From: Candidatus Babelota bacterium
GTDB taxonomy: Bacteria > Babelota > Babeliae > Babelales > JACPOV01
NCBI GenBank assembly: GCA_016191325.1
Contig: JACPOV010000008.1
Span: 718,351-782,350, forward strand
Reading direction: 5' to 3'
Length of the DNA stretch: 64,000 nt
The notes beneath the pieces were generated by a model. The model saw only the letters and a list, made by a program, of their open reading frames with translations, was not told the origin of the DNA and made no database searches. Numbering within the stretch: the first letter of the stretch is position 1; every line of letters begins with the position of its first letter. Shown piece by piece: positions 9,414 through 47,101 of the stretch. Both the position numbers and the translations under genes were made by a program.

Positions 9414-9444
9414 GGAAAAAGAAGCTTTGATTGAAAGGATAGTG

Positions 9445-10845
9445 ATGAAGAAAAAATTTATACCGGTGCTTTTGGCTGCCCTCGCCTTAGCTGTATGGCA
9501 TCGCACCAGTATGGGCATCACGATGCTCACCAAAAACGATCCTTACCCACTTTATACTACAGCCTATCCGTACCACTATCTCCTTTTTGGTGTAACTAAT
9601 TACTTTAAAGATATCACCGACTGCGTTAAAATTGATCGCGTCTCATTCCATGTTACCCCCTTTCATCAAAAAGCTAGCAGGGGCAGAGATTTTGAAGGTT
9701 GCATAAGATTTCTAGGAGATCTTGAAGGCCGCTGGAACATGCTCGGGCTTCTTTATGGCGCAGTGCCAACTGGCCAAAGTTTAGCAGGCACTCAAATCGG
9801 ATTTGCAAAACAACAAATTTTTCCTCCACTAGGGCCTAATGATACCGTCCCAGTAGAAAACGTATTGACCGATACAGGTTGTCATATTGGCTATTTTGCA
9901 GTACCACTCAAATATCGAAAAACCGGTGTTCGCTTTGAACTTGACGTCCAACCTTTTGAAGACTTTGGATTCACCATTCAAGCGGGACTCGCGGATATAA
10001 AACAAACACAAACCTGCCCATGCTGTGGCTTTATCGATCTTACCCCCACGGTAAGTTTAGATGATAGTATTTTCCCTGCTGCAGCTGTGCCTGTTATTGA
10101 ATCGCTTTTAATGTCTTGCACCGCCGCGACTCTCACCTTCAGCCAAATCGGGCTTGAAACATGCGACTTTGAAGAAGACTCTGTCGAAGATATGCGGTTC
10201 TTTGTTTGGTGGCGCCATGTATTTGAAGTAAATGCGAACAACTGTACTTATCCTTATTTTCTGTTTATTCCGTTTGTTCAGATTGAAGCAACTGCTCCTA
10301 TAGCCAAAACACAAAATCGACGAAAAGCGTTCGCGCTACCTTTTGGTAACGATGGCCACTCTTCGGTTGGGTTTACCGCAGGCTTCCATCTAGACTTTAA
10401 AGAAACAATCGAGATTGGGTTTTTTGGCGGTTACACAGCTTTTTCATCCAGAACCATTGATCTTTACAGATTACCAACGAGCCCCGTACAATCTGGCGTC
10501 TTTCCTTTTTCTACCACCGCGAAGGTACAACCGGGGCACAACAGCATATTTGGCGTACTTTTCCATGCATATCGTTTCCTTGAACGCCTCTCGTGCTGGG
10601 TCGAATACGACACCATTCATCATACTGAGGATAAAATAACAATCGAAAATCCGCCGGCTAATAACCCGTTTATTCCGCGGCAGCAAGAATGCCTTTCAAA
10701 ATGGCGAGTTCAAGTGCTCAATACAGCGTTTAATTATGAAATTTCACCTAATTTAACGCTTGGCCTTGCGGCGCAATGGCCAATCACACAAAGAAACGCG
10801 TACCGATCAACTACTCTTGCCGGTTCGCTCATTGCAACCTTCTGA
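9445..10845 (+). CDS. outer-membrane beta-barrel protein (porin/MOMP-like), Cys-containing
   Basis: Start moved to the ATG at 9445 (AAAGGA upstream). Signal peptide MKKKFIPVLLAALALAVW, alternating beta-strand-like pattern, C-terminal LAGSLIATF ending in F, and a CPCCGF motif. Confidence 0.65.
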   Translation: MKKKFIPVLLAALALAVWHRTSMGITMLTKNDPYPLYTTAYPYHYLLFGVTNYFKDITDCVKIDRVSFHVTPFHQKASRGRDFEGCIRFLGDLEGRWNMLGLLYGAVPTGQSLAGTQIGFAKQQIFPPLGPNDTVPVENVLTDTGCHIGYFAVPLKYRKTGVRFELDVQPFEDFGFTIQAGLADIKQTQTCPCCGFIDLTPTVSLDDSIFPAAAVPVIESLLMSCTAATLTFSQIGLETCDFEEDSVEDMRFFVWWRHVFEVNANNCTYPYFLFIPFVQIEATAPIAKTQNRRKAFALPFGNDGHSSVGFTAGFHLDFKETIEIGFFGGYTAFSSRTIDLYRLPTSPVQSGVFPFSTTAKVQPGHNSIFGVLFHAYRFLERLSCWVEYDTIHHTEDKITIENPPANNPFIPRQQECLSKWRVQVLNTAFNYEISPNLTLGLAAQWPITQRNAYRSTTLAGSLIATF

Positions 10846-16164: not shown

Positions 16165-16428
16165 ATGATTACTTTTTCTCAAAGCATTTTTGCAATTGCT
16201 GCGGGAATTATTGGTGGAGCAATTTATGGGCTTTTGTTCTTGCGAGCAAAGGCCCTTTGCCTTATTAAACCTCATTTTACCCCCATTTTAACCTTTCTCC
16301 GCCTTACGGGTTTAGCAATTTTTTTATTTTATGTATTGCGTAGCTCCATTTCTCATTCTATACTCCTAATAGTTAGCTTTTTTTCGGCATTCTGGTTCGT
16401 CATTATTAAGCACTCCCGGCAGCGTTAA
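16165..16428 (+). CDS. small 3-TM protein preceding atpB, AtpR/AtpI-like
   Basis: 87 aa, starting 3 nt after the folC stop. Helices IFAIAAGIIGGAIYGLLFL, ILTFLRLTGLAIFLFYVL (intramembrane Arg) and ILLIVSFFSAFWFVII resemble the N-ATPase AtpR layout. Assignment rests on pattern and position only. Confidence 0.4.
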   Translation: MITFSQSIFAIAAGIIGGAIYGLLFLRAKALCLIKPHFTPILTFLRLTGLAIFLFYVLRSSISHSILLIVSFFSAFWFVIIKHSRQR

Positions 16429-16471: not shown

Positions 16472-17209
16472 ATGGAAGCGTTTGAAAATGGACAATCACT
16501 TTGGAATCCACTTGGTTGGTTGGGAATAGAAAACGAACTGTTAAAGTTAAACGGTTCGACTATTATCAATACCTGGATTGTTCTTTTTGTTCTTATAACC
16601 CTCTTGATTCTCGCTCGTATCTTTATCGCAAAAAGTACAATTTTAGCGCACCTCATAAAGAAATCGGTACAAAGTCTTATCGATTTGATAGAGCAAAACA
16701 TGGGAAAATTTATTTATTCCCACTTTTTGATGGTTGCTGCACTTTTCCTCTTCATTCTTGGCTGCAATTGGGTGATTCTTTTACCATGGACAAAAGAACC
16801 TACTACCGACATTAATACAACACTTGCGCTCGCTGTAATAGCATTTTTCTATAAAGAAATTGCCTGCATACGCGCTCGTGGATGGTGGGGTTATTTAGAA
16901 GAATTTCTAGAACCGTTTTTTATTATGGCGCCCATCAATGTAATCGGCCATTTTTCAAAAATCATCTCTCTTTCGTTTCGTCTTTTTGGCAATATTTTTG
17001 GCAGCTCAATTATCATGGATTTGTACACGCACGTTATTTCTACATTTTGGCTTACGGAACTGCTTGGCCTTCTTTCTGGGCTTAATATCGTTGTCGTTCT
17101 TTTCTTTGGGCTCTTTGAAGGGCTCATTCAAGCATTTGTTTTCTCAATGCTCACCCTTACTTATATTGGTTTAGCGGTGCAAAAAGATCATCACGGCGAA
17201 AGTAACTAA
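16472..17209 (+). CDS. atpB: F-type ATP synthase subunit a
   Basis: 245 aa. Contains the conserved ISLSFRLFGNIFG (essential Arg) and EGLIQAFVFSMLTLTYI helices. Confidence 0.85.
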   Translation: MEAFENGQSLWNPLGWLGIENELLKLNGSTIINTWIVLFVLITLLILARIFIAKSTILAHLIKKSVQSLIDLIEQNMGKFIYSHFLMVAALFLFILGCNWVILLPWTKEPTTDINTTLALAVIAFFYKEIACIRARGWWGYLEEFLEPFFIMAPINVIGHFSKIISLSFRLFGNIFGSSIIMDLYTHVISTFWLTELLGLLSGLNIVVVLFFGLFEGLIQAFVFSMLTLTYIGLAVQKDHHGESN

Positions 17210-18159
17210 TGCTTAATCCATCAATTATACATTACTCGAGCTTAGCAAGCGTTATTGCACTCACCAGCTTGGGAGCAAGTTTGGGCGGTGCGCGCGCAAG
17301 TAAGGCGGCGGTTGAAGCAATAAATATCCAACCAGCATCAAAAGCAGAGATCACAAAGGTTACGATTGTTGGACTCGCCTTAATCGAAACTGCTGCAATT
17401 TTGGCACTTATTTTAATTTTACTTTTATTATTCAAAATTAAAGGATTGCCAACTCCCGCAATGGCCTACGCAGAGCTTGGCATTGCTGCAGGAATGGGCA
17501 TAACAGGATTTATTAGCGGATTGGTTTCAGCGGCCCCTGTTGTACAAACATGTTTTGCAATTGCGCGCCAACCTTTTTTTTCGCAACAGTTGATGAATCT
17601 TATGATCATTACCCAAACAATTATTCAAACGCCATTGATTTTTGTATTTCTTATTTCACTTTTTGTAACATTTCAAAGCACTCCTGAACTTACACTCAAA
17701 TCGGGAATTATTTTAATGTCGGCCGGAATTTGTATGGGGCTTGGATCTGTCGGTCCATCAATTGGTTTAGGAAGATTTGCCGAAACCGCGTGTAGAAGCG
17801 TCGGCATCAATAAAAAAGCATATAGTTATATTTTGCCGTTCACGCTCATGAGCGGAGCGTTTATTGAAACGCCTCTTATTTTTGCTTTTCTCGTTTCTCT
17901 CATTTTGCTTGGCAATATTTCAAGCGCCGATGCTTTTATTGGAATCCGTTCGATTTGTGCAGCGCTTTGCATCGGCGTTGGCACGTTCATGCCCGGTATA
18001 AGTTCAAGCAAAACCGCAAGTGCCGCATGCGAGCAAATGGCATTTCACCAAACAAGCTATTCGCGTGTTTCGCAAGTGAGTATGTTTGCTCAAGGAATAA
18101 TCGACGCGGCTGCCGTCTATGCTTTACTGACCGCCCTGTTTATAGTATTTCTTAAATAA
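17209..18159 (+). CDS. atpE: fused four-hairpin F-type ATP synthase c subunit (8 predicted TM helices)
   Basis: 316 aa. TAATG overlap with atpB. Four c-like helix-loop-helix units with ~80-aa period. Unit 1, SKAAVEAINIQPASKAEITKVTIVGLALIETAAILALILILL, aligns well to canonical c subunits. Ion-site residues are E60, Q140, E220, D299. Loop motifs are NIQP, ARQP, GINKK, FHQTS. Confidence 0.8.
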   Translation: MLNPSIIHYSSLASVIALTSLGASLGGARASKAAVEAINIQPASKAEITKVTIVGLALIETAAILALILILLLLFKIKGLPTPAMAYAELGIAAGMGITGFISGLVSAAPVVQTCFAIARQPFFSQQLMNLMIITQTIIQTPLIFVFLISLFVTFQSTPELTLKSGIILMSAGICMGLGSVGPSIGLGRFAETACRSVGINKKAYSYILPFTLMSGAFIETPLIFAFLVSLILLGNISSADAFIGIRSICAALCIGVGTFMPGISSSKTASAACEQMAFHQTSYSRVSQVSMFAQGIIDAAAVYALLTALFIVFLK

Positions 18160-23074: not shown

Positions 23075-25447
23075 TTAAAAAGGTTTTTTTCTTTTTTGGT
23101 ATTCGCGCCAGATAATTGTAGCGCCGATGAGAGCAATAAAGAATATTAGCATGAAGATTCCGCTCGTTAAGGAATGCGAAGCTGCATAATTCTTTTTTTC
23201 TTCAGGTTGCATTCGTTTGCCAGAAACATTCCCTTTCGTTCCTTCTTCCATTGGCCCTTGATAGGGGTCGATTTCTCGATAGGGAGAGAACGGAGCAGTT
23301 GGCATGCCTTCTTTTGCATAACCAAATGGCTGAGCTAAAGGTTTTTGTTCTTGCGTTTGGCTCGCTTTTTCTGATGGCGTAGCGGGAATTGAATAACCTC
23401 CGTAAGGAAGTTGATTTCGCTCGCCCGTATCAAAGAAACCGGGTATGGACGGATAAGCTGCGGAATTGCGAGTTACGGATGAATTTCTATAACGATCTCC
23501 GGGCGCAAACGATTGATTGAACTCTCTTATTGGCAAAGTTCCTGTAGACTCGTATGGGGCATTGTCAGTTGATCTCGCGCGATTGCTTGATGAAGGTATT
23601 ATTCTTGATCTGCCCGGCTGTATTCGTGACCAAGGAGTAAATTCAATCTTGTCGTACGCTTTTTTAATTTCTGGTAATTTACCCTCGAACTGTTTTTTTT
23701 CAGAACTAGGCAATTTTGAATCTTTTTCAATACGCAGCATTTCATCTTTCTTATCAACTATTTTTTCCGGAACTGCTGATATTTCTGGAGAAAGAATTAT
23801 CTGCTCTTTTTCGCTTATTGCTTTCTTTGCATCTTTTTGACTATCAGCTTTTTTAATTTTCTTGAAAGCATTTTCATCATCTCCTGCAACATCACCAATT
23901 CTTGGGCGCTTAATTGTCGGTGGTAAATTCCCGCCTGCTACAATCGCTTGTTGCAACTGAAGAGTTCCTGGTTTTAGTTCTATCAAAGCTTGTTGGCGTG
24001 CAACATCTTGAAAAACCCCTTCTTTGAGAGCGGCAGATTCTTTAATGATACTCTCTTGCTCTTCGGGCGGTAAATTTTCGCCTGAGACGATCGCTTGTTG
24101 CAGCTCAAGAGTTCCTGGTTTTAATTCTATCAAAGCCTTCTCGCGCGCAATTTCTTGAGTGGCCCCTTCTTTTAGAGCCGCGGATTCTTTAACAATACTA
24201 TTTTGCTCTTCTTTGTTTTCTTGCGATTTTGGCATGCTAATTTCTAACTCTTTGCCTATTTGCTCAATCGATTGCGCAGGAACTCGAGGTTCCACTTTTT
24301 CTACTGCCTTGCTAACTGGCTCTTGAATATTCTTTTCTATAATTGTTTCCGGTTCCGGCGCGATTTGAACGATTGGTTCAGCTACGAACGGAATAGGGGG
24401 AATGATTTGTGCAGGAGAAACTACCGGTATAATGTAGTTTGATTGGCCAAAGTTCACCGGTTCGGTAAGCGCACGATATTTTTGCTCACTAATTTGCGGG
24501 CGCTGTTGTTCACGCTCTGCATTAATCGCAAGAGCATTAAGTCGCTCAACCGTTGTGCCAAATAAATTTCTTAGTATTGCGTCATCCGGAAGTTGAATAA
24601 CATCTTGCCTTGAGTTGTAACCGCTTAAACGGGCCATATCAACTACTAATTTTTTAATCAATTGCTGTACCTGAGGAATTGCTAGCCCTTTCAATGAGCC
24701 AATGCGCATTGCAATTTGAGCGACAGATTGAGATCCATATCCTTCAAACGGAATCATTTCTTTTGATTCTTCTTGCGGCAATTGCTCTAAAACGTGCTGC
24801 GCAATCGTATCAAAACCCGCAAGTATCAATTCAATTTTCCTTTGTTCTATTTGCGGCCGGGTAAGTGCTCGTTGCTCAAAACGTTGCTGAGCAATCTCTT
24901 GCCCTTCTATTTCGCTTAGTGCAGGAACAAATTCTTCTTGCTCCAGCTCCGGTTCTATAAGAGAAAGCTCTTGGTACATCGGATATTCAATTGCCGGATA
25001 TTCTTTTTTTACCGACTCAGTTTTTTTAATCGTTGCCTGTTTTTCAGCTTGGCTTTTTATTTTTTGTGCCATTTGAGCGGGAGTTAATATTGTTCTTTGA
25101 GAAGGCGCTGGCTCAATCTCTTGCTCTACGGGTTTTTCTAGAGGTGCAGAATAGACAGGAAAAAGGGGTTTAGTAAATTGGAATGACTTAATTGTTTGGG
25201 TAAATCTTTGAAGATAGGTAGGCTGAGCTGATTTTTCTGGCTCAATCGCTGGAGTTATGCTTGCTCCTGAAAATGCAGGCGTCACAGTTTTCGTTTGCAC
25301 CGGCCTAATTGTAGGGGATTGCTTCGTTTTGCGTATTGGCTGTGCAGGCTTTTTAAACTGTATACGGCTAGAAGCAGTACCAAATATTCCTGCAAAAGCT
25401 TCTACGCTTAAAAGTGATAATAAACTAAGGAATAATAATTTTTTCAT
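23075..25447 (-). CDS. large secreted, P/E/Q-rich low-complexity protein with C-terminal membrane anchor
   Basis: Start moved to the ATG at 25447 (AGAGG upstream). Signal peptide MKKLLFLSLLSLLSVEAFA, long disorder-like sequence, a 49-aa tandem repeat, and C-terminal TM SGIFMLIFFIALIGATIIW followed by REYQKRKKPF. Confidence 0.7.
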   Translation of the reverse strand: MKKLLFLSLLSLLSVEAFAGIFGTASSRIQFKKPAQPIRKTKQSPTIRPVQTKTVTPAFSGASITPAIEPEKSAQPTYLQRFTQTIKSFQFTKPLFPVYSAPLEKPVEQEIEPAPSQRTILTPAQMAQKIKSQAEKQATIKKTESVKKEYPAIEYPMYQELSLIEPELEQEEFVPALSEIEGQEIAQQRFEQRALTRPQIEQRKIELILAGFDTIAQHVLEQLPQEESKEMIPFEGYGSQSVAQIAMRIGSLKGLAIPQVQQLIKKLVVDMARLSGYNSRQDVIQLPDDAILRNLFGTTVERLNALAINAEREQQRPQISEQKYRALTEPVNFGQSNYIIPVVSPAQIIPPIPFVAEPIVQIAPEPETIIEKNIQEPVSKAVEKVEPRVPAQSIEQIGKELEISMPKSQENKEEQNSIVKESAALKEGATQEIAREKALIELKPGTLELQQAIVSGENLPPEEQESIIKESAALKEGVFQDVARQQALIELKPGTLQLQQAIVAGGNLPPTIKRPRIGDVAGDDENAFKKIKKADSQKDAKKAISEKEQIILSPEISAVPEKIVDKKDEMLRIEKDSKLPSSEKKQFEGKLPEIKKAYDKIEFTPWSRIQPGRSRIIPSSSNRARSTDNAPYESTGTLPIREFNQSFAPGDRYRNSSVTRNSAAYPSIPGFFDTGERNQLPYGGYSIPATPSEKASQTQEQKPLAQPFGYAKEGMPTAPFSPYREIDPYQGPMEEGTKGNVSGKRMQPEEKKNYAASHSLTSGIFMLIFFIALIGATIIWREYQKRKKPF
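23918..24211 (-). repeat. 2 x 147-bp in-frame tandem repeat inside the 790-aa gene
   Basis: GGTAAATT anchors at 23922 and 24069 give a 147-nt period. Encoded units are ESIIKESAALKEGVFQDVARQQALIELKPGTLQLQQAIVAGGNLPP and NSIVKESAALKEGATQEIAREKALIELKPGTLELQQAIVSGENLPP. Confidence 0.8.
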
Positions 25448-25536
25448 CTTTTCCAACCTCTTTTAATTCAACTATTAGTATAACTGATTTTGCAAAATTT
25501 TCAATCAGTAATTAATTAAGGTGCGGAAAAGTGATA

Positions 25537-26124: not shown

Positions 26125-27405
26125 ATGCACGGCCTCAAAAAACATATCCTCTCAATAATAGTAGTGACGAAATTTTACTGTATATCGGCAATGGAACCGC
26201 AACCTGCACCAGAAATTGTTTCCTATGCTCAAGAATTCGCGCAGGATGAGATTCGCCCAGAGCTTCTTGAGCAATTGCTTGCTACGTGCCCCAAACTGAA
26301 GCAATTGGTTTTCCGTTTACAAAATCCTCTCCGCTATGGCAGAACAATCCCTACTAAACTTTTGCTCGTTGGCCCTCCTGGAGTTGGCAAAACTACTATT
26401 GCAAAAGGAATTGCTTCACTCATTAATCGCCCCTATATATTTCTTCGAGCATCGTTACTCACAAATGAATATAAAAATTCTGGGCCGCAAAATTTAGCGC
26501 GCGAAATAATACCTATTTTACAAAGCGGGCAACCTTATGTAATCATCGTGGATGAACTGCATGCGCTCACTGAAAATTATAAAAAAGACCACAATGCAGA
26601 TCCAGGAACTGCAGAAGCATTATGGTCGATTCTCGATGAATGCGCCAAAAATCCACAAGTTCTTTTTATTGGTACCACCAATGATGCTGTAAAACTTCCA
26701 GAACCGCTCAAAACAAGATTTGCAAACGGGATCATTGAAATACCACTGCCAAATCTTGAACAGCGAACTAATATTATTAAATATTATTTACACAACATCT
26801 CTTACACATTCGACAGATCATATTTTACAACTCTGGCAAAACAAACGAATCAACTTTCGGGTCGCAATCTTGAGCAACTAGTTTCTGATGCGATTACGTA
26901 CGCTTTAGATCGAGAAGAAATTCCGATGATTAGAAAAAAAGATTTTGAGCGCGCTTTGAAGGATATGAATGAAAATCAAAGTTCATTGGCATTGTTGGGC
27001 TGGGAAAAACATAAGCAATTTTTAAAAGATAACGCCACAACTATCGCCACGATTATTGGTATAGGTGTAAGCCTTGTTGGGCTCGCAATGCAATACTGGT
27101 CGATGCAGCGACAAATTTCCCTTCAGTTAGTTGCGCAAAACGCGCAAATAGACCAAAATAAAAAATTTCTCGATCATCAAGTAAAAGTGCAAAATGAGCA
27201 ATTTACTATCGAACAGGGAAACAAAGAAAAAAAAGCAAACCAGTCTGCGTTCATACAAAAAACTGGTGCCGGCGCGGGTATAGTTACAGGAGCATTTACA
27301 TTAGCTGCATCATTCCCACCCCTTTGGCCAGTAGCTTACGTAATTGGTGGTAGTGGAGCATTGATGGCTGCTGATGCATTTGATCAGAATTGGAGCAAGA
27401 TGTGA
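26125..27405 (+). CDS. membrane-anchored classical-clade AAA+ ATPase
   Basis: N-terminal hydrophobic anchor (ILSIIVVTKFYCISA), Walker A LLLVGPPGVGKTT, Walker B YVIIVDELH, sensor-1 region FIGTTN, PEPLKTRF. C-terminal TM TIATIIGIGVSLVGLAMQYW and Gly-rich helix GAGAGIVTGAFTLAASF. GGGAGA SD. Confidence 0.8.
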   Translation: MHGLKKHILSIIVVTKFYCISAMEPQPAPEIVSYAQEFAQDEIRPELLEQLLATCPKLKQLVFRLQNPLRYGRTIPTKLLLVGPPGVGKTTIAKGIASLINRPYIFLRASLLTNEYKNSGPQNLAREIIPILQSGQPYVIIVDELHALTENYKKDHNADPGTAEALWSILDECAKNPQVLFIGTTNDAVKLPEPLKTRFANGIIEIPLPNLEQRTNIIKYYLHNISYTFDRSYFTTLAKQTNQLSGRNLEQLVSDAITYALDREEIPMIRKKDFERALKDMNENQSSLALLGWEKHKQFLKDNATTIATIIGIGVSLVGLAMQYWSMQRQISLQLVAQNAQIDQNKKFLDHQVKVQNEQFTIEQGNKEKKANQSAFIQKTGAGAGIVTGAFTLAASFPPLWPVAYVIGGSGALMAADAFDQNWSKM

Positions 27406-30368
27406 TTTTTTCCAAAGCACGAAAAAAACTCTCTAAGAAAATCTTATTCGCTGCATTCGTTTCATTCAGCTTTTCAACATTGCAATCTATGGCAATACCG
27501 TGGCAAACCATTGCACCGACTCTTGCAAATTTAAGCTACGGATGCGGAGCTTTAGTTAATAAACTCTTAAACACACAGCGCCATAGCATTCCATCTCCAG
27601 CTCAACAAATACCAATTACTCGCGCGCCTCTAATTTTAAGCGTTAGGCAATCCTCGATCGCCCCAATTAGATCATTATGCATAAAATCGCCAATCGAAAC
27701 CTACAGCAGAGCGCTTCATTGTAAATTGCAACAGAATTTACCTACAGCGCTTCTCAAAAACCCCGCTTCGACCGCAACGCCAAAACTACGATTGGGTCAC
27801 CTGCCCTCAGCTCGTGGCAAAAGCGAAATTTATAAAACGAAAACTGCATCATCGCTCCTAAAATTGCCTCAAGTCAGGCCAGATTTGCAGTATGTAAAAC
27901 CTAAAAGCGCTTGGGAATCTTTTATCGATAAATTAACAATAACAGTCGTTCCACATGATATTGATTATCGCACATATGGCGCAGTCTCCGATCTGCATCG
28001 AGCTACCGTCGAACAGCAATCCCTCATCAACCAATACCAGCAAAATGGCATGTTCCATGTGCTAGAACAGAACGTTGCAAAATTTCAATCAATCTTATTG
28101 GATCTCTCGCGATCAGATCCTCAAGGCGTTATCGCGCGCAATAAATTTTCTGAATTGCAAGCACCTTTGCCACTCGCCCAGCATTATCTTAATGATTTTA
28201 AAACATGCATAAAAATGTTTGCTTTTGATAAAGCAGATACCATAAAACAAAACCTTTCGAAAGTTGATTCATTTTATATAGCAGCTCATTGTCAATCATT
28301 TATACAACGAAGCTTCGGCGCTCAAGCAGCAGCCGATTTTGTAAAAATGGGATGCGAACAAAAAATTCCTGGGTACCTTGAACTCAGCGGGCAAGTAAAA
28401 TATGGAAATATTTTTTCTCGAGCGCGTCGATGGTTTGCAGGATGTAAAACTGGATTCCGTTCAAATGAATTTAATCCGCATCATATTCTTGAAAATAGCT
28501 TTAATCAAAAGATAACGCACGTACGAACATTATGCGAAAACCAAAAATTCCATTTAGCTCATGCTTATATTCAGCAATCGTCAGGGGAAAGCAAGCAAAG
28601 TTTGCTGGGTGTTTATGGGGAATATTTTAAACAAAGCTATAATCAACTTGGTATCGAGCGCTGTTATGAAAATGATCCTTTTTTTGCGCAAATTTCATCC
28701 CAACTTAAATATAGTAGCGTACCCAGCGCAGGCCTCAATGATGTTTTTAAATCACGCCACGATATGTTCAATGCCATTAAGCAAACATGCGCTATCCCTA
28801 ACAACGCTGACGCGTTCAGCAATTCTTTAATGTGGCATCTAGTTGATCAATGCGGAAATAACGCAACTCCAAAGCAGATGGTGAGCGATTTAGCTGTTCT
28901 GTGCAAAGATAGCGCAGCCAAAACAATTTCTGGAGCGTATCATCATTTTTTTGATGGCAACGGGATCTTTAAGCTCTTAAATTATGATAAATCTAACTTT
29001 GCGCATCTTTCTTTTCATGAATCGATTCACCATGAACGCAATACTCACACACGAATCTTCTTAAATGATCTTATACAGATTCCGTGTACAACCAAGCAAC
29101 AGTTAGAGGCTTTTTCAAGCGCCCTAAATCACCTAAACCAATCATGCAAAAATCCTTCCCTAGCTACGCAACATATGACGTTCGCGCAAGACATTGCCAA
29201 TGCGCTCTCAAATCCTGATTACGACCAAAAAATTATTTCCTGCGGCGATTTTAGTAAATATGATATGCGCCTTCTTAAACTTGGATCCGAAATAATTACC
29301 GCTAAGAATAATACGAATGTTCAGCTTGCTGACATGCAAGAGCTGAATGCTGCATTGGCGCAACTAAACGATGCTGGAATCGCACGCTTGAATGGAGATT
29401 ATTATCTTTCAGAACACCTAACCAACAAAACCTTAGGATCGCTCGATATTGAATCAAGCAGTTTTTGGCAGCAAGAAAAAACGAGCTTTATAAAACCGAT
29501 ATCCGCTGATTTAAAAACATCATTTTTCAATATTCAATCTCCCAAAACTCAAGAAGCTGCCCCTTCTAAAAATAGTTTTGCAAACGGTTTTGCGGCCGCC
29601 GTGGGAGCTCGAGCATTGCAGCAGGCTTTTTCTGGAAATTCTTTCGCGCCAGCACCTTCAGCTAATTATTCACAGACGCAAACAGATGCCGCTAGTGCGT
29701 GCCCGCAATGTGCAAACGATGCAGACGCAATTCATGAGTATTTTGACTATTTAAATCAAGGCGGCCAACCTGTTGCCATTTCTGGCGGACAGGCTGATGC
29801 TGCTCAAAAGGCAAAAGAAGACGATTGCAATGAAGCGCCGACAAAATTATCACTTTTAGAACAAATAGAATTAGCAAGAAAAGCAAATGATTATTTCCGG
29901 GAACAAATTGCGAAATATGAAGCTGAAATCGTTGAGGCGATAAAGAAAAAGCTCAAAGAAAATAATTTAAATTATGAACCAACGATTCACGTTAAAGATA
30001 TTAATATGAAACACATCATGTTTACAGAATCGAGAGGCAAAAACCCAGTCGGATTACATTCAAAACGCTGGAATCCTGAACGAATAGTTACGGCAAGCGT
30101 CCGCCCTTGCAAATTCAATACAAGCCATGGGAAAGTTCAGCTCAATTGCATCACTAAACCTTCAACCTTTTTCCCCGATAGCTGGAATGAATTCATGATT
30201 GTTGATAAAATTTTTGAAGCATTAAAGAATATTATTAACGTAAATACAATAAGCAGTAAATTAATAATAAAAGGAATTACGCAAGAACAAATCTATATTG
30301 AATTACATCTTGAAAGTGGAGGTTTAATTTCAACGGCCTATCCATCATTTAAGGATTTATGCATTTAG
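27390..30368 (+). CDS. large secreted protein with C-terminal EndoU-like RNase (polymorphic-toxin type) domain
   Basis: Starts at TTG 27390 or GTG 27402, the latter overlapping the AAA stop as GTGA. Signal peptide KKILFAAFVSFSFSTLQSMA. The last ~128 aa (nt 29982-30365) carry KHIMFTE, VGLHSKRW, KPSTFFPDSWNEFMIVDKIFEALKN and LISTAYP. These parallel the EndoU His/His/Lys motifs and the bacterial EndoU hallmarks. Confidence 0.65.
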   Translation: MEQDVIFSKARKKLSKKILFAAFVSFSFSTLQSMAIPWQTIAPTLANLSYGCGALVNKLLNTQRHSIPSPAQQIPITRAPLILSVRQSSIAPIRSLCIKSPIETYSRALHCKLQQNLPTALLKNPASTATPKLRLGHLPSARGKSEIYKTKTASSLLKLPQVRPDLQYVKPKSAWESFIDKLTITVVPHDIDYRTYGAVSDLHRATVEQQSLINQYQQNGMFHVLEQNVAKFQSILLDLSRSDPQGVIARNKFSELQAPLPLAQHYLNDFKTCIKMFAFDKADTIKQNLSKVDSFYIAAHCQSFIQRSFGAQAAADFVKMGCEQKIPGYLELSGQVKYGNIFSRARRWFAGCKTGFRSNEFNPHHILENSFNQKITHVRTLCENQKFHLAHAYIQQSSGESKQSLLGVYGEYFKQSYNQLGIERCYENDPFFAQISSQLKYSSVPSAGLNDVFKSRHDMFNAIKQTCAIPNNADAFSNSLMWHLVDQCGNNATPKQMVSDLAVLCKDSAAKTISGAYHHFFDGNGIFKLLNYDKSNFAHLSFHESIHHERNTHTRIFLNDLIQIPCTTKQQLEAFSSALNHLNQSCKNPSLATQHMTFAQDIANALSNPDYDQKIISCGDFSKYDMRLLKLGSEIITAKNNTNVQLADMQELNAALAQLNDAGIARLNGDYYLSEHLTNKTLGSLDIESSSFWQQEKTSFIKPISADLKTSFFNIQSPKTQEAAPSKNSFANGFAAAVGARALQQAFSGNSFAPAPSANYSQTQTDAASACPQCANDADAIHEYFDYLNQGGQPVAISGGQADAAQKAKEDDCNEAPTKLSLLEQIELARKANDYFREQIAKYEAEIVEAIKKKLKENNLNYEPTIHVKDINMKHIMFTESRGKNPVGLHSKRWNPERIVTASVRPCKFNTSHGKVQLNCITKPSTFFPDSWNEFMIVDKIFEALKNIINVNTISSKLIIKGITQEQIYIELHLESGGLISTAYPSFKDLCI

Positions 30369-37171: not shown

Positions 37172-38821
37172 TTACTTTTTTTCTAGCAATGCCTTCACTT
37201 CTGCTGGTAACTTTTTATATTCATCTGCGAATTCTTTATTAAGCGCATTGACGCCTGCTTCTTTTGCAATTAAGAATATAATGAGCTGCTTGAGCGAAAG
37301 CGATTTTAATTTGAGCTCATCAGATTCCCAGATAATAACCGATCCTTTGATACCACCTACGCCCTGCGCTGATGCAAGTTTTCCATTTGAGTTGAATACC
37401 ACGTTTTGCACCCCCTTCGCCTCTAGAGTTTGAAGTTTTTTGCCGGTAAGCGCATCCCAAATTGTAATTGAGTCTTGGCCGCCAACGGCTAGTTTCGTGC
37501 CATGTTCATTGAATGCGACTGAAGTTACCAGCCTCTTTTCGTTATCGTTACTTTGCAATTTGTTTCCTGTAGCAAGATCCCATACTATAAAGCCATCGTT
37601 TCCTCCCGAAGCAAGCTTTGTACCATCTGGACTAAAAGCTACAGAGTTTATGATATGTGAATGACCAGTTAATGTTTTAAGCTTATTTCCAGTTGCAAGA
37701 TCCCATATAATTACCGAAAAATCTTGCCCGCCTGAGGCTACCATTTTTCCATCCGGGCTGAATTTTACCGAGTGAGCAGAAGCTGTGTGGCCTTGCAGGG
37801 TCTGAATTTGCTTTTCTTGCATAATATCCCATATAATGACGTTGGGGCCAAACGCCTCAGCCAAGGCCAACTTTAAGCTATTGGGGCTGAATGCAATAGA
37901 TCTTGTATTAACAGGTATCGCTTTAAGTTGTTTACCGCTAGGAAAATCAAATAGAGAAAGGTCTCGGGTGATTGATCCTGCAACAAGTTTTTTGCCATCC
38001 GGACTAAACAAAACGTTTTCAGGGCGAGTCTCAACTTGGATTAATGCAAAATCTTTTTTTAGAACAAGGTCCCAAACTATGATTGTAGCTTTATTTGCCC
38101 TACGAGACCCATACGCGATTTTTCCACCATCTGGACTGAATGCTACCGAGTCAATTTCACTGAGTTCAGTTAATGATTCTGATTGACTGAATGGCAAGCC
38201 CAAAGCGCTTATAAGATTGTTCGTTACCATTTTTTGAAGATCTTGTGGAAGCAAAGCATTTATTTGGTTGAAGATTCCCTGTCTTGCATTAAGCTCCGCC
38301 AAAGCGTTCGAGGATTGCAATCGTTTTACTAGAGCGTTAACTGATGCTTTTAATAGTTTTTCAATGTCTAAATAATTGGCAGCTTGAGCTACGTATGCAA
38401 TTTCTGTGAAAGTAAAATTTTCTAATGATTTTTCTATTAACTTTGCATCATCAAGTACGCCACTGTTTGCCAATGAAAAAATAGCTTGAACTGCCCCAAG
38501 CGAGAGTTTAGGAAGGGTTATTACACTCCCTGCTTGCAGTACTGCCTGATCATCCTCCGCCATATTTTTCAACGTGACAGAGCTTGCTACTACTTTTTTT
38601 AGTAATTGATATGCCTCAGAATTTATAGCAGGCACGGTTACTTCAATATTACCAGTATCGTCTTGCACAATAAACGGAAATTGGGGGGCTGATGTCTGTT
38701 GTATCCCTGTCGCTGGCAGATATTCCTCTTCCTCCATACCGCTCGGGGGACAACTGGCGTAAGCAAGATTCGTGCAAATGAATAATATGGATATCGCTCT
38801 GAATGTATTAATTATTTTCAT
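37172..38821 (-). CDS. secreted Skp1-like (BTB/POZ fold) domain fused to a seven-blade WD40 propeller
   Basis: Start moved to the ATG at 38821 (GAGGT SD). Signal peptide MKIINTFRAISILFICTNLAYA. SVTLKNMAEDD, VITLPKLSLGAVQAIF and AQAANYLDIEKLLKASVNALVKRL parallel Skp1 SVTIKTMLED, PVPLPNVNAAILKKVI and [24 protein letters not shown]. Seven repeats of the (V/I)xFSPDGxK(L/V)ASGG ... IWD type follow. Confidence 0.7.
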   Translation of the reverse strand: MKIINTFRAISILFICTNLAYASCPPSGMEEEEYLPATGIQQTSAPQFPFIVQDDTGNIEVTVPAINSEAYQLLKKVVASSVTLKNMAEDDQAVLQAGSVITLPKLSLGAVQAIFSLANSGVLDDAKLIEKSLENFTFTEIAYVAQAANYLDIEKLLKASVNALVKRLQSSNALAELNARQGIFNQINALLPQDLQKMVTNNLISALGLPFSQSESLTELSEIDSVAFSPDGGKIAYGSRRANKATIIVWDLVLKKDFALIQVETRPENVLFSPDGKKLVAGSITRDLSLFDFPSGKQLKAIPVNTRSIAFSPNSLKLALAEAFGPNVIIWDIMQEKQIQTLQGHTASAHSVKFSPDGKMVASGGQDFSVIIWDLATGNKLKTLTGHSHIINSVAFSPDGTKLASGGNDGFIVWDLATGNKLQSNDNEKRLVTSVAFNEHGTKLAVGGQDSITIWDALTGKKLQTLEAKGVQNVVFNSNGKLASAQGVGGIKGSVIIWESDELKLKSLSLKQLIIFLIAKEAGVNALNKEFADEYKKLPAEVKALLEKK

Positions 38822-39191
38822 ATTTACCTCAGCCACCTTGCGAGAATTGAATTGGTTTACTGTATTTATCATAGAGTATATATTAAATCTTATTTGAAAA
38901 TAAATAAAAAATTTGGGCTTATAATTAATTATTTTTACATTAAGAGTAAAAATATATTTTGAGAATATTATTTTATAAAATATGCCTGAATAGGCTGTTG
39001 AATATATGCTGGCTCACTAACTACTGTTTTTTGGGCTTGAGCTAGGAAACTTGTCTTACCTAAGCGCAACAACTATGCGCCCTGCCCACCCAATAACCTT
39101 CAAAAAATTTATTTTTTTCTAATTCCTTTTTTTTGTAAACCGGCAGCTTCTCAGGAATTTCGATGCTTACAAAAAAGTCGACCACCCATTA

Positions 39192-40700
39192 TTATCCGCC
39201 CTTAATCACCGCAATCGGCACTAAGCGCGCTACCTTTTTTGCAATACCCGCATCATGCACAACGTTTACTACTTCTTCGACATCTTTGTAAGCGCTCGGC
39301 GCTTCTTCTGCAAGGCCAACATCCGAATCGCATCGCACAATAATCCCTTTTGATTCCAATTGCCCGCGAAGCGCAGATCCGCGAACCGATTTTTTCGCCG
39401 CGAAGCGAGACATTTTTCTTCCTGCACCGTGGCATGAGGAACCAAATGATAACTCCATTCCTTTATTCGTGCCCACAAGTACATAAGAAGCGGTTCCCAT
39501 CGTGCCAGGAATTAAAACAGGCTGCCCAACTGCGCGGTATTTTACCGGAACCTCCGATCTTTCTGCGCCAAAAGAACGTGTTGCGCCTTTTCTATGCACT
39601 AAGAGATCAAGCATCGAGCCATCAACTTCGTGCTTCTCCTTTTTTCCCATGTTGTGCGAAACGTCGTACACTAAATTAAGATGTGCATTATCTCCGAGCA
39701 CCTCTTGCCATGCTTGCCGCACCCAATGGCCAATCAAATGTCTATTTGCCCACGCAAAGTTTGCTGATGCTTGCATTGCTGCAAAATATTCTTGGCCTTC
39801 AGGTGATTTAAAAGGCGCGCATACCAACTCCTTATCGGGCAGTTGTATGTTCCATTTTGGCAATAAGGGCATAAATTGCCGTACATAATCTGTGCATGTT
39901 TGATGGCCCAAACCGCGGGAGCCGCAATGGATCATCACCGTCACTTGATCTTTGCGCAAACCAAAAATCTGTGCCGTTTCAGGATCTAAAATCTCATCAA
40001 CTTTTTGCACTTCAAGAAAATGATTACCAGAACCGAGCGTTCCTAATTGATCAGCTCCCCGTTCTTTTGCTTTATCGGAAACGAGATCTGGATTTGCACC
40101 GCTCATGCATCCGCGCTCTTCACAATATTCAATATCAGCAGGTTCCCCAAATCCCTTTTCGAGCATAAAAGGTGCACCGCGAGCCAGAACATTATTAAGA
40201 TCTTTTCCTTTCATCACGACGTTGCCGCCCCGCCCAACGCCTGATGGCACTGCGTTAAAAAGTGCTGTCGCTAATCGTTCAAGATCTTGTGCAATTTCTT
40301 TCGCAGTAACATTTGAAGCCAATAGACGCACACCACAATTAATATCGTAACCTATTCCGCCGGGCGATATGACACCTCCATGATCAATAGCGGTCGCTGC
40401 AACGCCGCCGATTGGAAACCCGTATCCTTCGTGAATATCTGGCATCGCAAGCGCATAATTAACGATACCAGGCAACGTGGCAACGTTCACTAACTGCCAA
40501 AGGGAACGGTCAATGCCGATATCTTTGAGCATTTTTTCAGTTGCAAAGATGCGTGCCGGAACTCGCATATCAGAGCGAAATGTCCGCGGAATCTCATAAA
40601 GGTATTTTTCGATTTTAATTAAATCTGCTTGAGTTATTTTTTCTGCCATAGCTTCCTTTTTTTTGTGCGCAGCAGTTAGATCATCGTATAGAGAGATCAC
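39192..40700 (-). CDS. rtcB: RNA-splicing ligase RtcB (long archaeo-eukaryotic type, 502 aa)
   Basis: GYDINCGVRLL, GSGNHFLEVQ, HCGSRGLGHQ, LVHRKGATR, GTMGTASYVL, SCHGAGR, and a C-terminal PIAVIKGG. Confidence 0.95.
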   Translation of the reverse strand: MISLYDDLTAAHKKKEAMAEKITQADLIKIEKYLYEIPRTFRSDMRVPARIFATEKMLKDIGIDRSLWQLVNVATLPGIVNYALAMPDIHEGYGFPIGGVAATAIDHGGVISPGGIGYDINCGVRLLASNVTAKEIAQDLERLATALFNAVPSGVGRGGNVVMKGKDLNNVLARGAPFMLEKGFGEPADIEYCEERGCMSGANPDLVSDKAKERGADQLGTLGSGNHFLEVQKVDEILDPETAQIFGLRKDQVTVMIHCGSRGLGHQTCTDYVRQFMPLLPKWNIQLPDKELVCAPFKSPEGQEYFAAMQASANFAWANRHLIGHWVRQAWQEVLGDNAHLNLVYDVSHNMGKKEKHEVDGSMLDLLVHRKGATRSFGAERSEVPVKYRAVGQPVLIPGTMGTASYVLVGTNKGMELSFGSSCHGAGRKMSRFAAKKSVRGSALRGQLESKGIIVRCDSDVGLAEEAPSAYKDVEEVVNVVHDAGIAKKVARLVPIAVIKGG

Positions 40701-40702
40701 CG

Positions 40703-41146
40703 TTAAATATCAAAAACAAGTTCCGTAGTCCACAGGCCGTCAGCTGTTTTCGTAATATGACATTCATGATAGGTTACCGCTTTTATTTCTATTTCAAAAC
40801 GCAAAACAGGCACTCCTCGGAGCGTAGCTTTTAAAACATTGGTGCCCAACTGGTGAATGACCGCGTCAAGATAGGCTTCGTTATGAACATCTGAAAGATA
40901 CAATGCATCTGATAAAAAATTTACTAGAAGATCTTCTAGTTTTTCTCCAGAAACTTTTGAATTGCGTGTGACTATAAGATCTTGGCAAACAAGATAATCT
41001 TTTTTTTTAATGCAATTGACCGCCGACGGACCAATTGATTGAAACATGCCGATAAGCGCATTTATAAATAGTTCTTCCTGTGTCGAGCCAAAAACGCGAA
41101 TTTTCAAATCGGCGGTATGGGATTCAACCTCAAATTTTTTTTGCAC
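40703..41146 (-). CDS. archease (RtcB activator)
   Basis: 147 aa. ESHTADLKIRVFG at the N-terminus and KAVTYHECHI near the C-terminus. Lies 2 nt upstream of rtcB. Confidence 0.85.
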   Translation of the reverse strand: MQKKFEVESHTADLKIRVFGSTQEELFINALIGMFQSIGPSAVNCIKKKDYLVCQDLIVTRNSKVSGEKLEDLLVNFLSDALYLSDVHNEAYLDAVIHQLGTNVLKATLRGVPVLRFEIEIKAVTYHECHITKTADGLWTTELVFDI

Positions 41147-41178
41147 TTCGCTTACTCCCCTCTTTCACAAAACCACCA

Positions 41179-41481
41179 CTAAGAAATGAGACAATGCTTA
41201 TTTGTATCGGTTTTCATATCTGCATTGTCATCTTTATTTTTCGCATGCGCAATATCGACTTTACTGTTTTGGGATGGATTATTTTCCAGAACATACTCAC
41301 AGTAATACGCGCCGCGCGAGGCGCTACCAAAATCGAACTCAGGGTTTGGGGTGCAAGAGACAATCTTATATCCTAGGCAGACCGCTTGGAAATTGCGGTT
41401 TTGAGATTCGGTGCCAACAGGGCCCACGGCATTTACAATTACTGAGCCTAAAAACATTATTCCCAAGAGATTATATTTCAT
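41179..41481 (-). CDS. small secreted protein, hypothetical
   Basis: Start moved to the ATG at 41481 (AAAGGA SD 8 nt upstream). Signal-like MKYNLLGIMFLGSVIVNA. ~100 aa. Confidence 0.45.
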   Translation of the reverse strand: MKYNLLGIMFLGSVIVNAVGPVGTESQNRNFQAVCLGYKIVSCTPNPEFDFGSASRGAYYCEYVLENNPSQNSKVDIAHAKNKDDNADMKTDTNKHCLIS

Positions 41482-41590
41482 CGAAGATCCTTTATTATAA
41501 AAGCAGATGCAAGGTGAATGATCGCTCATTATACTTCGTATTGGAGATAATCTGTAGTATATTTCGCTATAAAAACTTTTACAGCAAATC

Positions 41591-41887
41591 TTAAAAACTA
41601 CCAGTACTCGAAACCTTGGGAGCGGCACTATTATTATTTGTTGCTGCGCTTGGATTTTGCTGTTGTAACGGATTTAGAACTTGGGGAGAATTTTGAAAAT
41701 TTTGTGCGCCGTAACTAATTCCTGGAAAGTCTGCCCAATACTGGCCCGTTTGTTGGGAAGTTATAGCGTAGCCAATGACTATAGAAACAGTGGGCTGCGT
41801 TTGGTTTGTTCCCGAGTCGATAGGACACGAAGTACCAATGGCGGTCCATGCAATGAGCATTATAGCAGTTAATAATCTTAGTTTCAA
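41591..41887 (-). CDS. small secreted protein, hypothetical
   Basis: A TTG start at 41887 gives (M)KLRLLTAIMLIAWTAIGTSC, a signal-like N-terminus, and a Q/N-rich C-terminus. The longer track ORF is less plausible. Confidence 0.4.
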   Translation of the reverse strand: MKLRLLTAIMLIAWTAIGTSCPIDSGTNQTQPTVSIVIGYAITSQQTGQYWADFPGISYGAQNFQNSPQVLNPLQQQNPSAATNNNSAAPKVSSTGSF

Positions 41888-42022
41888 AATTATGCCCTTT
41901 TGAAAAATTAATAATTTATTGAAATGAAAAGTATGCCAATCATTATAAGGTAATTCTGCTGGATGTTCAACCCAACACTTTTGCACAATCATTGATCTGG
42001 AGGCAATAAGTATCTACACTAC

Positions 42023-44086: not shown

Positions 44087-45127
44087 ATGAATAGCCCTAT
44101 TTGTTTTGTTGCTGGCGGATCGGGGGGCCATGTAGTTCCTTGTGCCACCATCGCGCAAGAATATCGCGAGCGCACAAATGCACCGTTCCTTTTTTTTACT
44201 TCAGATCGCGCACTTGAGCATTCTATTTTGAAAAATTATTCATTCATAGAAAATCCTGAAAAACTCCGCCTCAAAAAGTTTCCTGGCTGGCGCTTCTGGC
44301 TTTATCCTTCGTTTATAGTGTCGTTTGCCAAAAGTTGCTCCGCAGCATTTTCAGTATTAAAAAAAAATAAGCCATCCAAAATTATCAGCTTTGGTGGCGC
44401 AATTTCTATTCCTGTTTGCTTGAGTGGAGCGCTCCTTGGTATTCCAATTGAGCTTTATGAGCTCAATGCGATTCCAGGAAAAGCAGTACGCTTACTTTCA
44501 TATTTTGCTCAACGCATTTACATTTGCTTCGAGCAAGCGCTCGATAAGTTGCCCACATCAAAATGCATACTTACTCCCTACCCAGTGCGTTTCAAAACTG
44601 CAAAACGCGAACCATTGGCACTTGCGCAACCAAAAGAACACAAGACAATCTTAGTGCTTGGTGGATCTCAAGGATCTGCATTTATTAATTCGTTTATTAA
44701 AAATTGGATTAAAGAAAGTCCACTCGCGCCATCGTTGCATATTATTCACCAAACCGGTGCTCAACATAGAGCCGAACTTATGGAATTTTATACAGCCAAT
44801 CGCGTTACAGCGCATGTTTTTGATTACGATAATGCGCTTGACGCCTATTATCAACAAGCAGATTTAGTTGTATGCCGCGCGGGCGCCGGCTCACTATTTG
44901 AAACTCTTTTTTTTCAAAAACCTTGCATTACCATTCCGCTTGAAAATTGTGCAGACAACCACCAAAATGCAAATGCATCGGCATTTGCTGAGCGTTATCC
45001 CGAACTCGTGTATATTTTGCGCCAAAACGATTTGGTAACCGACCCAGAACTTTTTGATTACGCGGTTCGTATTGCGTTGAACTACGAAGGCCAAGAATCG
45101 GGCCTACCACCCAGCGTAAATACATAA
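44087..45127 (+). CDS. murG: UDP-GlcNAc:lipid I N-acetylglucosaminyltransferase MurG
   Basis: CFVAGGSGGHVVPCATIAQEY, LVLGGSQGSAFIN, DLVVCRAGAGSLFE. Confidence 0.9.
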   Translation: MNSPICFVAGGSGGHVVPCATIAQEYRERTNAPFLFFTSDRALEHSILKNYSFIENPEKLRLKKFPGWRFWLYPSFIVSFAKSCSAAFSVLKKNKPSKIISFGGAISIPVCLSGALLGIPIELYELNAIPGKAVRLLSYFAQRIYICFEQALDKLPTSKCILTPYPVRFKTAKREPLALAQPKEHKTILVLGGSQGSAFINSFIKNWIKESPLAPSLHIIHQTGAQHRAELMEFYTANRVTAHVFDYDNALDAYYQQADLVVCRAGAGSLFETLFFQKPCITIPLENCADNHQNANASAFAERYPELVYILRQNDLVTDPELFDYAVRIALNYEGQESGLPPSVNT

Positions 45128-47010: not shown

Positions 47011-47101
47011 CCGTTTCTCCTTGCTTCTTAAAAACATTGCTATACTACTAACCTGATTATGCGATTAGCAAGCATTGTATGTGTGCCCAGCAAGCCCCAT
47101 T

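Follow-up and report, generated by a model that had tools for sequence, protein, structure and literature searches.

A four-hairpin F-type ATPase subunit c conserved across Dependentiae and its possible role in an ATP-driven ion pump

Introduction

The ion-to-ATP ratio of a rotary ATPase, its 'gear ratio', depends on how many ion sites the c-ring carries. In the textbook F-type ring all subunits are identical single hairpins, each with one site, and the only exception known to us among F-type enzymes is the single copy of c1 in the ring of Acetobacterium woodii. A 64,000-nucleotide stretch of a Candidatus Babelota genome (GCA_016191325.1, contig JACPOV010000008.1, positions 718,351 to 782,350; hereafter the window, to which coordinates refer unless another locus is named) carries, after the gene for subunit a (atpB), a subunit c gene about four times the usual length, which we term c4. 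An earlier note, made from the sequence alone, read its product as four fused hairpins, one of them with a neutralized ion site. This locus raises the question of whether c4 is a genuine rotor subunit, to which type of ATPase it belongs, and what it would do to the gear ratio of that enzyme. Our analysis indicates that c4 is an old and phylum-wide fusion in Dependentiae, and that it is probably the rotor subunit of an F-type ATPase acting as an ATP-driven ion pump in these ATP-importing bacteria.

Results

Four fused hairpins in one open reading frame

The c4 open reading frame (ORF; 17209–18159, forward strand) encodes 316 amino acids (aa). Its start codon overlaps the stop codon of atpB in the sequence TAATG (…AAC TAATG CTT…), the A being shared with TAA, and through this overlap c4 is translationally coupled to atpB. 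The product matches the Pfam family ATP-synt_C (PF00137) in four non-overlapping stretches (E 3e-21, 75.9 bits, cut-off 24), the strongest of which covers residues 171–233 in hairpin 3, and the NCBIfam models of F0F1 subunit c match it in three to four stretches. We divided c4 at ~79-aa intervals and compared the family alignments of the four units profile to profile; each pair of units is homologous, with a probability of 97–99.5%. Canonical F-type c models match hairpin 1 best, and the same holds for c1 and c2 of A. woodii. The length and the TAATG overlap, the four helix-loop-helix units with a period of ~80 aa, the expectation of four separate ATP-synt_C matches and the nearness of unit 1 to canonical subunit c, all proposed in the earlier note, are thereby confirmed.

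Hairpin 1 (aa 1–79, 17209–17445) has the loop NIQP and carries E60 (GAA, 17386–17388) in the motif LIET. Hairpin 2 (aa 80–158, 17446–17682) has the loop ARQPFF (R120-Q121-P122), and Q140 (CAA, 17626–17628) stands in IIQT. In hairpin 3 (aa 159–238, 17683–17922) the loop reads GINKK, with no RQP, and E220 (GAA, 17866–17868) lies in FIET. Hairpin 4 (aa 239–316, 17923–18156) has the loop FHQTS and carries D299 (GAC, 18103–18105) in IIDA, with Tyr304 at +5. All four lie on the forward strand, and inspection of the codons showed the site residues and loops to be exactly those first read from the sequence. The two-helix hairpin with a carboxylate in the middle of helix 2 is thus found in hairpins 1, 3 and 4, with Q140 substituting in hairpin 2. 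The polar RQP loop is present as ARQP in hairpin 2 and as xQP in hairpin 1, and is lost in hairpins 3 and 4. Alignment inspection and family columns place D299 in register with E65 of Ilyobacter tartaricus subunit c, because the conserved tyrosine at +5 (Y304) corresponds to Y70, which stands in the same relation to E65. A canonical subunit c is a single hairpin of about 70–90 aa; c4 departs from this and is a fused variant, not a canonical member.

An AlphaFold2 model, built with the alignment of 115 family sequences described below as input, has a mean predicted local distance difference test score (pLDDT) of 96.3 and a predicted template modelling score of 0.91. It contains eight long helices forming four hairpins, the number of helices expected beforehand, and the helices are kinked exactly at positions 60 and 140. 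The four units share only 18–31% identity with one another at the protein level and 42–48% at the DNA level, in keeping with the proposal of an old fusion, as opposed to a recent or assembly-made duplication. As to the order of duplication, the profile scores show no clean (1,3)(2,4) pattern.

An F-type subunit beside an F-type subunit a

By sequence and by fold, the closest relatives of c4 are A. woodii c1 and c2, chloroplast c and I. tartaricus c. The best match in the PDB is A. woodii c1 (4bem_J; sequence E 3.8e-9, fold E 3e-5, template modelling score 0.77 on the target), which covers two of the four hairpins; no solved chain spans all four. In the sequence alignment of the two proteins, a glutamine also occupies the carboxylate position in the second hairpin of A. 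woodii c1.

The gene upstream, atpB (16472–17209, forward strand), encodes a 245-aa subunit a of the F-type, with a match to PF00119 at E 8e-36 and a score of 103.5 against TIGR01131 (cut-off 102.6). It aligns over its whole length with chloroplast a (6fkf_a, E 8e-20), and the stator arginine motif LSLSFRLFGNI is identical in the two proteins. The essential arginine (Arg170, codon 16979–16981) is kept, and to judge from its sequence the subunit a beside c4 looks functional. The best sequence matches and this neighbour together support the assignment of c4 to the F-type.

The alternative that c4 is a V/A-type or N-type proteolipid draws on a weak match to the V-type K model PRK06558 (E 1e-7), on V-type c chains being the next fold matches after A. 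woodii c1, and on the match of the N-ATPase c model TIGR03322 to hairpin 1. These signals are faint. The V-type K models (the other gives E 0.13) are far under cut-off, the identity to the V-type chains is only 13–19%, and the TIGR03322 score of 76.5 lies below the cut-off of 130.85. Neither atpQ and atpR nor the N-ATPase gene order (atpDCQRBEFAG) is present at the window locus, the partner is an F-type a and not a V-type a/I subunit, and the best matches of c4 are F-type c models and F-type chains. We regard this alternative as largely refuted. The label 'F/N-type c' in the earlier note is therefore retained in its first half and dropped in its second.

A conserved family with four specialized hairpins

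A search of 5.8 billion protein clusters (90% identity) recovered 115 full-length homologs of 309–331 aa, with 33–97% identity and the same four-hairpin 1-2-3-4 architecture. Those that are named belong to Candidatus Babeliales, Dependentiae or TM6, and the database labels read 'ATP synthase F0 subunit C' or 'hypothetical protein'. A profile search run exhaustively against 1.84 billion representatives (50% identity) gave 248 matches of this architecture at E<1e-30. When GTDB was scanned with each species represented by a single genome, the gene turned up in at least 92 genomes, recognized as Dependentiae by title or synteny; among them are Vermiphilus pyriformis, strain Noda2021 and a Chromulinivoraceae genome. 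All carriers belong to Dependentiae. The Babeliales genome of the window is closely related to GCA_036260945.1. No c4 was found in IMG/VR.

The first and third sites are nearly invariant in the 115 sequences (site 1: E 114, D 1; site 3: E 114, Q 1), and site 4 is mostly aspartate or glutamate (D 87, E 26, G 2). Site 2 is occupied by Q in 94 members, E in 13, M in 7 and G in one. The combined patterns are EQED (75 sequences), EQEE (16), EEEE (9), EMED (7) and EEED (4). Around the sites, hairpin 1 has T at +1 from the carboxylate in 106 of the 115 and a near-invariant QP in the loop. The hairpin 2 loop A-R-Q-P-F-F retains Q121 and P122 in every member and R120 in 114. Hairpin 3 is marked by I-E-T-P-x-I-F (T221 in 114, P222 and F225 in 113 each), and hairpin 4 by I-[DE]-x-x-x-x-Y, with the tyrosine at +5 in 112. 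Since each hairpin has a near-invariant signature of its own, the four positions are specialized and not interchangeable, which fits an old fusion with a fixed ring geometry.

An artefact, whether an assembly duplication, sequencing errors in frame or stop codons that merged separate c genes, or a decaying pseudogene, was considered at this point. Nothing but the unusual length of c4 speaks for it. The units are too dissimilar at the DNA level for an assembly duplication and the confidence of the AlphaFold2 model is very high. Compared with its closest relative (97% aa identity), c4 shows 85 synonymous and 10 non-synonymous differences, a ratio of non-synonymous to synonymous rates (dN/dS) of 0.027; against relatives with 72% identity dN/dS is 0.10–0.12, and the four units are constrained to a similar degree. 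An intact ORF with the unit order 1-2-3-4 is present in 86 of 87 independent Dependentiae loci, the remaining one ending at a contig edge, and these assemblies come from NCBI, ENA, JGI and Logan. The intact ORFs together with the low dN/dS exclude a frameshift or pseudogene, and the chance that c4 is an artefact of any kind is negligible. The four-hairpin architecture is phylum-wide in Dependentiae and not a one-off.

Genomic context

In the window, c4 lies in the order FolC-like ligase, small membrane protein, a, c4, GT4 glycosyltransferase. Every Dependentiae locus inspected has the a gene immediately before c4. A search for a second c gene found none in the window and none within 6–10 kb of c4 in the 87 loci. 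A protein search with hairpin 1 only, aimed at a single-hairpin c of Dependentiae, returned just 14 candidates and a single 110-aa fragment, too little to be informative.

The small membrane protein (16165–16428, forward strand; 87 aa, multi-pass) occupies the position of atpI. It has no Pfam or NCBIfam match to ATP-synt_I or ATPase_gene1 and none to any other Pfam family, and the profile of its family matches one AtpZ-like protein only marginally (10.7 bits). In at least 55 Dependentiae loci a homolog of 83–116 aa immediately precedes the a gene, and the protein may serve this lineage as a dedicated factor for assembly of the fused ring.

Several metagenome-assembled genomes that carry c4 and Dependentiae synteny (our loci L007, L020, L039, L040, L043, L046, L050, L051, L053, L061, L063, L069 and others) are titled 'uncultured Pseudomonadota bacterium' or 'Candidatus Saccharimonadales bacterium'. 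They have in common the order FolC-like ligase, small membrane protein, a, c4, GT4 glycosyltransferase and PALP enzyme. This shared synteny places them in the same lineage as the Dependentiae carriers, and the titles are probably mislabels.

Comparison with known multi-hairpin proteolipids

The units of c4 share with canonical F-type c (Escherichia coli AtpE, I. tartaricus c, chloroplast c) the helix-loop-helix structure and the carboxylate in the middle of the membrane on helix 2, and the two also have in common the gene position after atpB and the RQP loop, retained in hairpin 2 of c4. Canonical c, however, is a single hairpin of 70–90 aa with one site, encoded within the operon atpIBEFHAGDC, whereas c4 has four non-equivalent hairpins and belongs to a split operon.

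The nearest parallel is A. woodii c1, likewise an F-type protein of fused hairpins in which one carboxylate is replaced by glutamine. It has two hairpins and one active site, compared to four hairpins and three carboxylates in c4. A single copy of c1 is built into a ring with nine single-hairpin c2/c3 subunits encoded beside it (PMC9171764). In contrast, c4 has no adjoining single-hairpin c in the 87 loci, and its gene is located apart from the F1 genes.

The V/A-type proteolipids (yeast Vma3-type c, Enterococcus hirae NtpK and Pyrococcus-type c) have also undergone hairpin duplication and site loss, with fewer ions moved per ATP. They differ from c4 in having two hairpins and one site (50% occupancy, compared to 75% in c4) and in working with V/A-type a/I subunits and V1/A1 heads, while c4 is partnered by an F-type a. 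More than two fused hairpins are also found in archaea, with or without site loss: subunit c of Methanocaldococcus jannaschii has three hairpins and that of Methanopyrus kandleri 13. These archaeal enzymes are of the A1Ao type and none is F-type. The numbers of hairpins per c subunit given in PMC9171764 are 1, 2, 3 and 13 for archaeal A-type enzymes and two for V-type enzymes and A. woodii c1; a four-hairpin form is not among them.

The earlier note stated that its author was not aware of a description of such an architecture. In agreement, we were unable to find in the full-text literature any paper on a four-hairpin F-type c or on a fusion in Dependentiae. In the genome papers on Dependentiae the enzyme appears only as 'an ATP synthase', the c-subunit architecture goes unmentioned in PMC4776705 and PMC6561590, and the Babela paper and the dated-tree paper on ATP synthases contain nothing relevant to c4.

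Other multi-hairpin F-type c genes

Further F-type c genes with fused hairpins were encountered outside Dependentiae. A three-hairpin c with the sites E/Q/E (P0119, 249 aa; L087:8155–16050 and L088) is followed by an 81-aa single-hairpin c in a complete operon, atpI-a-c3-c-b-delta-alpha-gamma-beta-epsilon, which resembles the hybrid rotor of A. woodii. Two five-hairpin forms, each in a full F1Fo operon and followed there by a single-hairpin c, differ in their sites: P0236 (406 aa; L089:6688–15324, GCA_942491525.1) has E,Q,Q,Q,Q, and P0251 (434 aa; L092:4461–12630) has Glu in all five. P0256 has a site pattern similar to that of P0236. A four-hairpin F-type c unrelated to c4 (P0230, 320 aa; L091:6948–14822) has the sites E,S,S,Q and also lies in a full F1Fo operon, in which a PanD aspartate decarboxylase gene separates it from an 86-aa single-hairpin c. 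The location of these genes inside complete F1Fo operons indicates that such proteins belong to real F-type enzymes.

The longest example, on a Logan contig (L090:8001–10907, SRR32804280_776), is an ATP-synt_C gene of 968 aa that immediately precedes an F-type a (PF00119). It contains 90 in-frame TGA codons, and translation with code 25 (TGA = Gly) turns its W-rich motifs into GxGxGxG. Read in this way, it has 13 hairpins, each with L[VI]E[SV]xAIY[GAS]L and its Glu, and most with GIGEG in helix 1. The gene looks like a whole c-ring in one polypeptide, from a Gracilibacteria/Absconditabacteria-like bacterium, and among bacterial F-type enzymes it would correspond to the 13-hairpin c of Methanopyrus. 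The c4 family is one of several undescribed multi-hairpin F-type c families.

Discussion

A rotor for an ATP-driven pump

We propose that the three hairpins with E60, E220 and D299 would carry ions and that the Q140 hairpin would be a blank when it passes the stator arginine of subunit a, a role like that of the glutamine hairpin in A. woodii c1. Docking of the central stalk of F1 (gamma/epsilon) would fall to two loops, the invariant RQP of hairpin 2 and the QP of hairpin 1. If the ring consists only of c4, in n copies, it would have 4n hairpins with 3n sites. At three ATP for each turn, exactly n ions would be moved per ATP: two, three or four for 8, 12 or 16 hairpins. An unfused ring of the same size would move 4n/3. 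The enzyme would run mainly in reverse, as an ATP-driven pump for H+ (or Na+), because published genomes show that Dependentiae import host ATP and have no respiratory chain. All TM6 genomes studied encode an ATP synthase and ATP/ADP translocases and lack an electron transport chain (PMC4776705), and the ATP synthase of Chromulinavorax has been proposed to operate in reverse (PMC6561590). For a pump, the lowered ion-to-ATP ratio would give a larger membrane potential per ATP. This would parallel the V-type proteolipids, in which duplication was accompanied by site loss and site loss is associated with dedicated pumping (PMC9171764).

The deduction in the earlier note that the ring comes in multiples of four hairpins and moves fewer ions per turn is reasonable; it holds only if c4 is the sole component of the ring. 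A rotor of this kind, (c4)2 or (c4)3, with 8 or 12 hairpins, 6 or 9 ions per turn and two or three ions per ATP, is put forward tentatively, and we would not bet on it at even odds.

As to the transported ion, the pair E-T is present in hairpins 1 and 3, and the helix 1 position equivalent to Q32 of I. tartaricus is G in c4. Across the family, this position is Q, G, E or S in hairpin 1, and S, L and G/S in hairpins 2, 3 and 4, respectively. A canonical Na+ signature at the Q32 equivalent was not found in the c4 family, an observation that is not decisive. The ion may be H+ by default, an assignment made with low confidence.

Evidence that weighs against the proposal, and the alternatives

Several observations weigh against the proposal of a pump rotor with c4 as its c subunit. 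The NCBIfam equivalog cut-offs for subunit c are missed: the best model, NF009998, gives 92.5 bits against 116, and TIGR01260 gives 23.9 against 43.95. Glutamate is kept at site 2 in 13 of the 115 family members, so the fused design does not require a blank site. All four of the other multi-hairpin F-type operons carry a single-hairpin c (81–89 aa). Finally, the genes for b, delta, alpha, gamma, beta and epsilon are absent from the window and from the 6–10 kb around c4 in the 87 loci. When 86 loci and the window were translated in six frames, regular expressions for the Walker A and DELSEED motifs of alpha/beta gave no match. There was also no match in phmmer searches of the c4 loci in which the b, delta, alpha, gamma, beta and epsilon subunits of two real F1Fo operons served as queries.

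The third of these observations bears on the main rival, a hybrid rotor resembling that of A. woodii, in which one or a few copies of c4 would sit among single-hairpin c subunits encoded elsewhere in the genome and the ion-to-ATP ratio would be trimmed only slightly. That the closest solved relative of c4, A. woodii c1, works in a hybrid ring (PMC9171764) adds to its appeal. In Dependentiae, however, a single-hairpin c is found neither beside c4 in the 87 loci nor in the window. Moreover, c4 keeps three of its four carboxylates, while of the four proteins from the hybrid-type operons three have fewer left (E,Q,Q,Q,Q; E,S,S,Q; E,Q,E) and P0251 keeps all five. A hybrid rotor thus seems unlikely to us, at roughly one chance in a handful.

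The detachment of the a–c4 module from the F1 and stalk genes in all 87 loci could be accounted for more radically by a device consisting of Fo only, in which a and c4, perhaps with the small membrane protein, would work without F1 as a regulated leak or channel, or as a rotor for something other than F1. The invariance of RQP in hairpin 2 and the near-invariance of QP in hairpin 1 would be hard to explain without a central stalk. An unregulated Fo would also dissipate the membrane potential, and a complete ATP synthase is reported in all TM6 genomes examined (PMC4776705, PMC6561590). The presence of F1 in genomes with c4 is taken here solely from these published genome analyses. On balance, an Fo-only device is improbable, well below the hybrid rotor, and we favor the F-type pump with c4 as its rotor subunit.

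Other genes in the window

A number of other genes in the window deserve mention. A 566-aa protein (37172–38872, reverse strand) has a eukaryote-like WD40 beta-propeller that matches many WD40 Pfam families, with E-values down to 1e-51; WD40 beta-propellers are typical of host-interaction proteins in intracellular bacteria. A gene pair at 39192–41146 (reverse strand) encodes an RtcB RNA ligase (E 7.5e-174) and an archease, a notable retention of RNA/tRNA repair in a reduced parasite genome. The ORFs at 39192–41992, whose sizes had suggested b, delta and alpha subunits, were rejected as such; they encode RtcB, archease and unknown proteins. A 793-aa protein with no family match (23075–25456, reverse strand) has a signal-like segment at its N-terminus, a transmembrane helix at its C-terminus and an internal tandem duplication, in which …IIKESAALKEG…ALIELKPGTL[EQ]LQQAIV[SA]GENLPP… occurs twice. 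At 26125–30368 (forward strand), the end of an AAA ATPase gene (426 aa) is overlapped by a 992-aa ORF that has no Pfam match. The ORFs at 9427–10845 (472 aa) and 45082–47037 (651 aa) have no family match.

Implications

A c4 that is phylum-wide and has a blank site would fix the ring at multiples of four hairpins and the ion-to-ATP ratio at an integer. If the ring is (c4)3, its three-fold symmetry would match that of F1, and the usual symmetry mismatch between rotor and head would be gone. With only two to four polypeptides per ring, c4 is also a simple target for structural work.

If c4 is the only component of the ring, Dependentiae would have repeated, independently and with a bacterial F-type enzyme, the route taken by the V-ATPases: duplicate the hairpins, lose sites and become a pump. 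The c4 family provides a natural and independent test of whether hairpin fusion and site loss accompany the switch from synthase to pump. It would also form part of a wider, unexplored radiation of F-type c subunits with three, four, five and 13 hairpins, whose occurrence in uncultured bacteria suggests that changing rotor stoichiometry by fusion is far commoner in F-type enzymes than published work would indicate.

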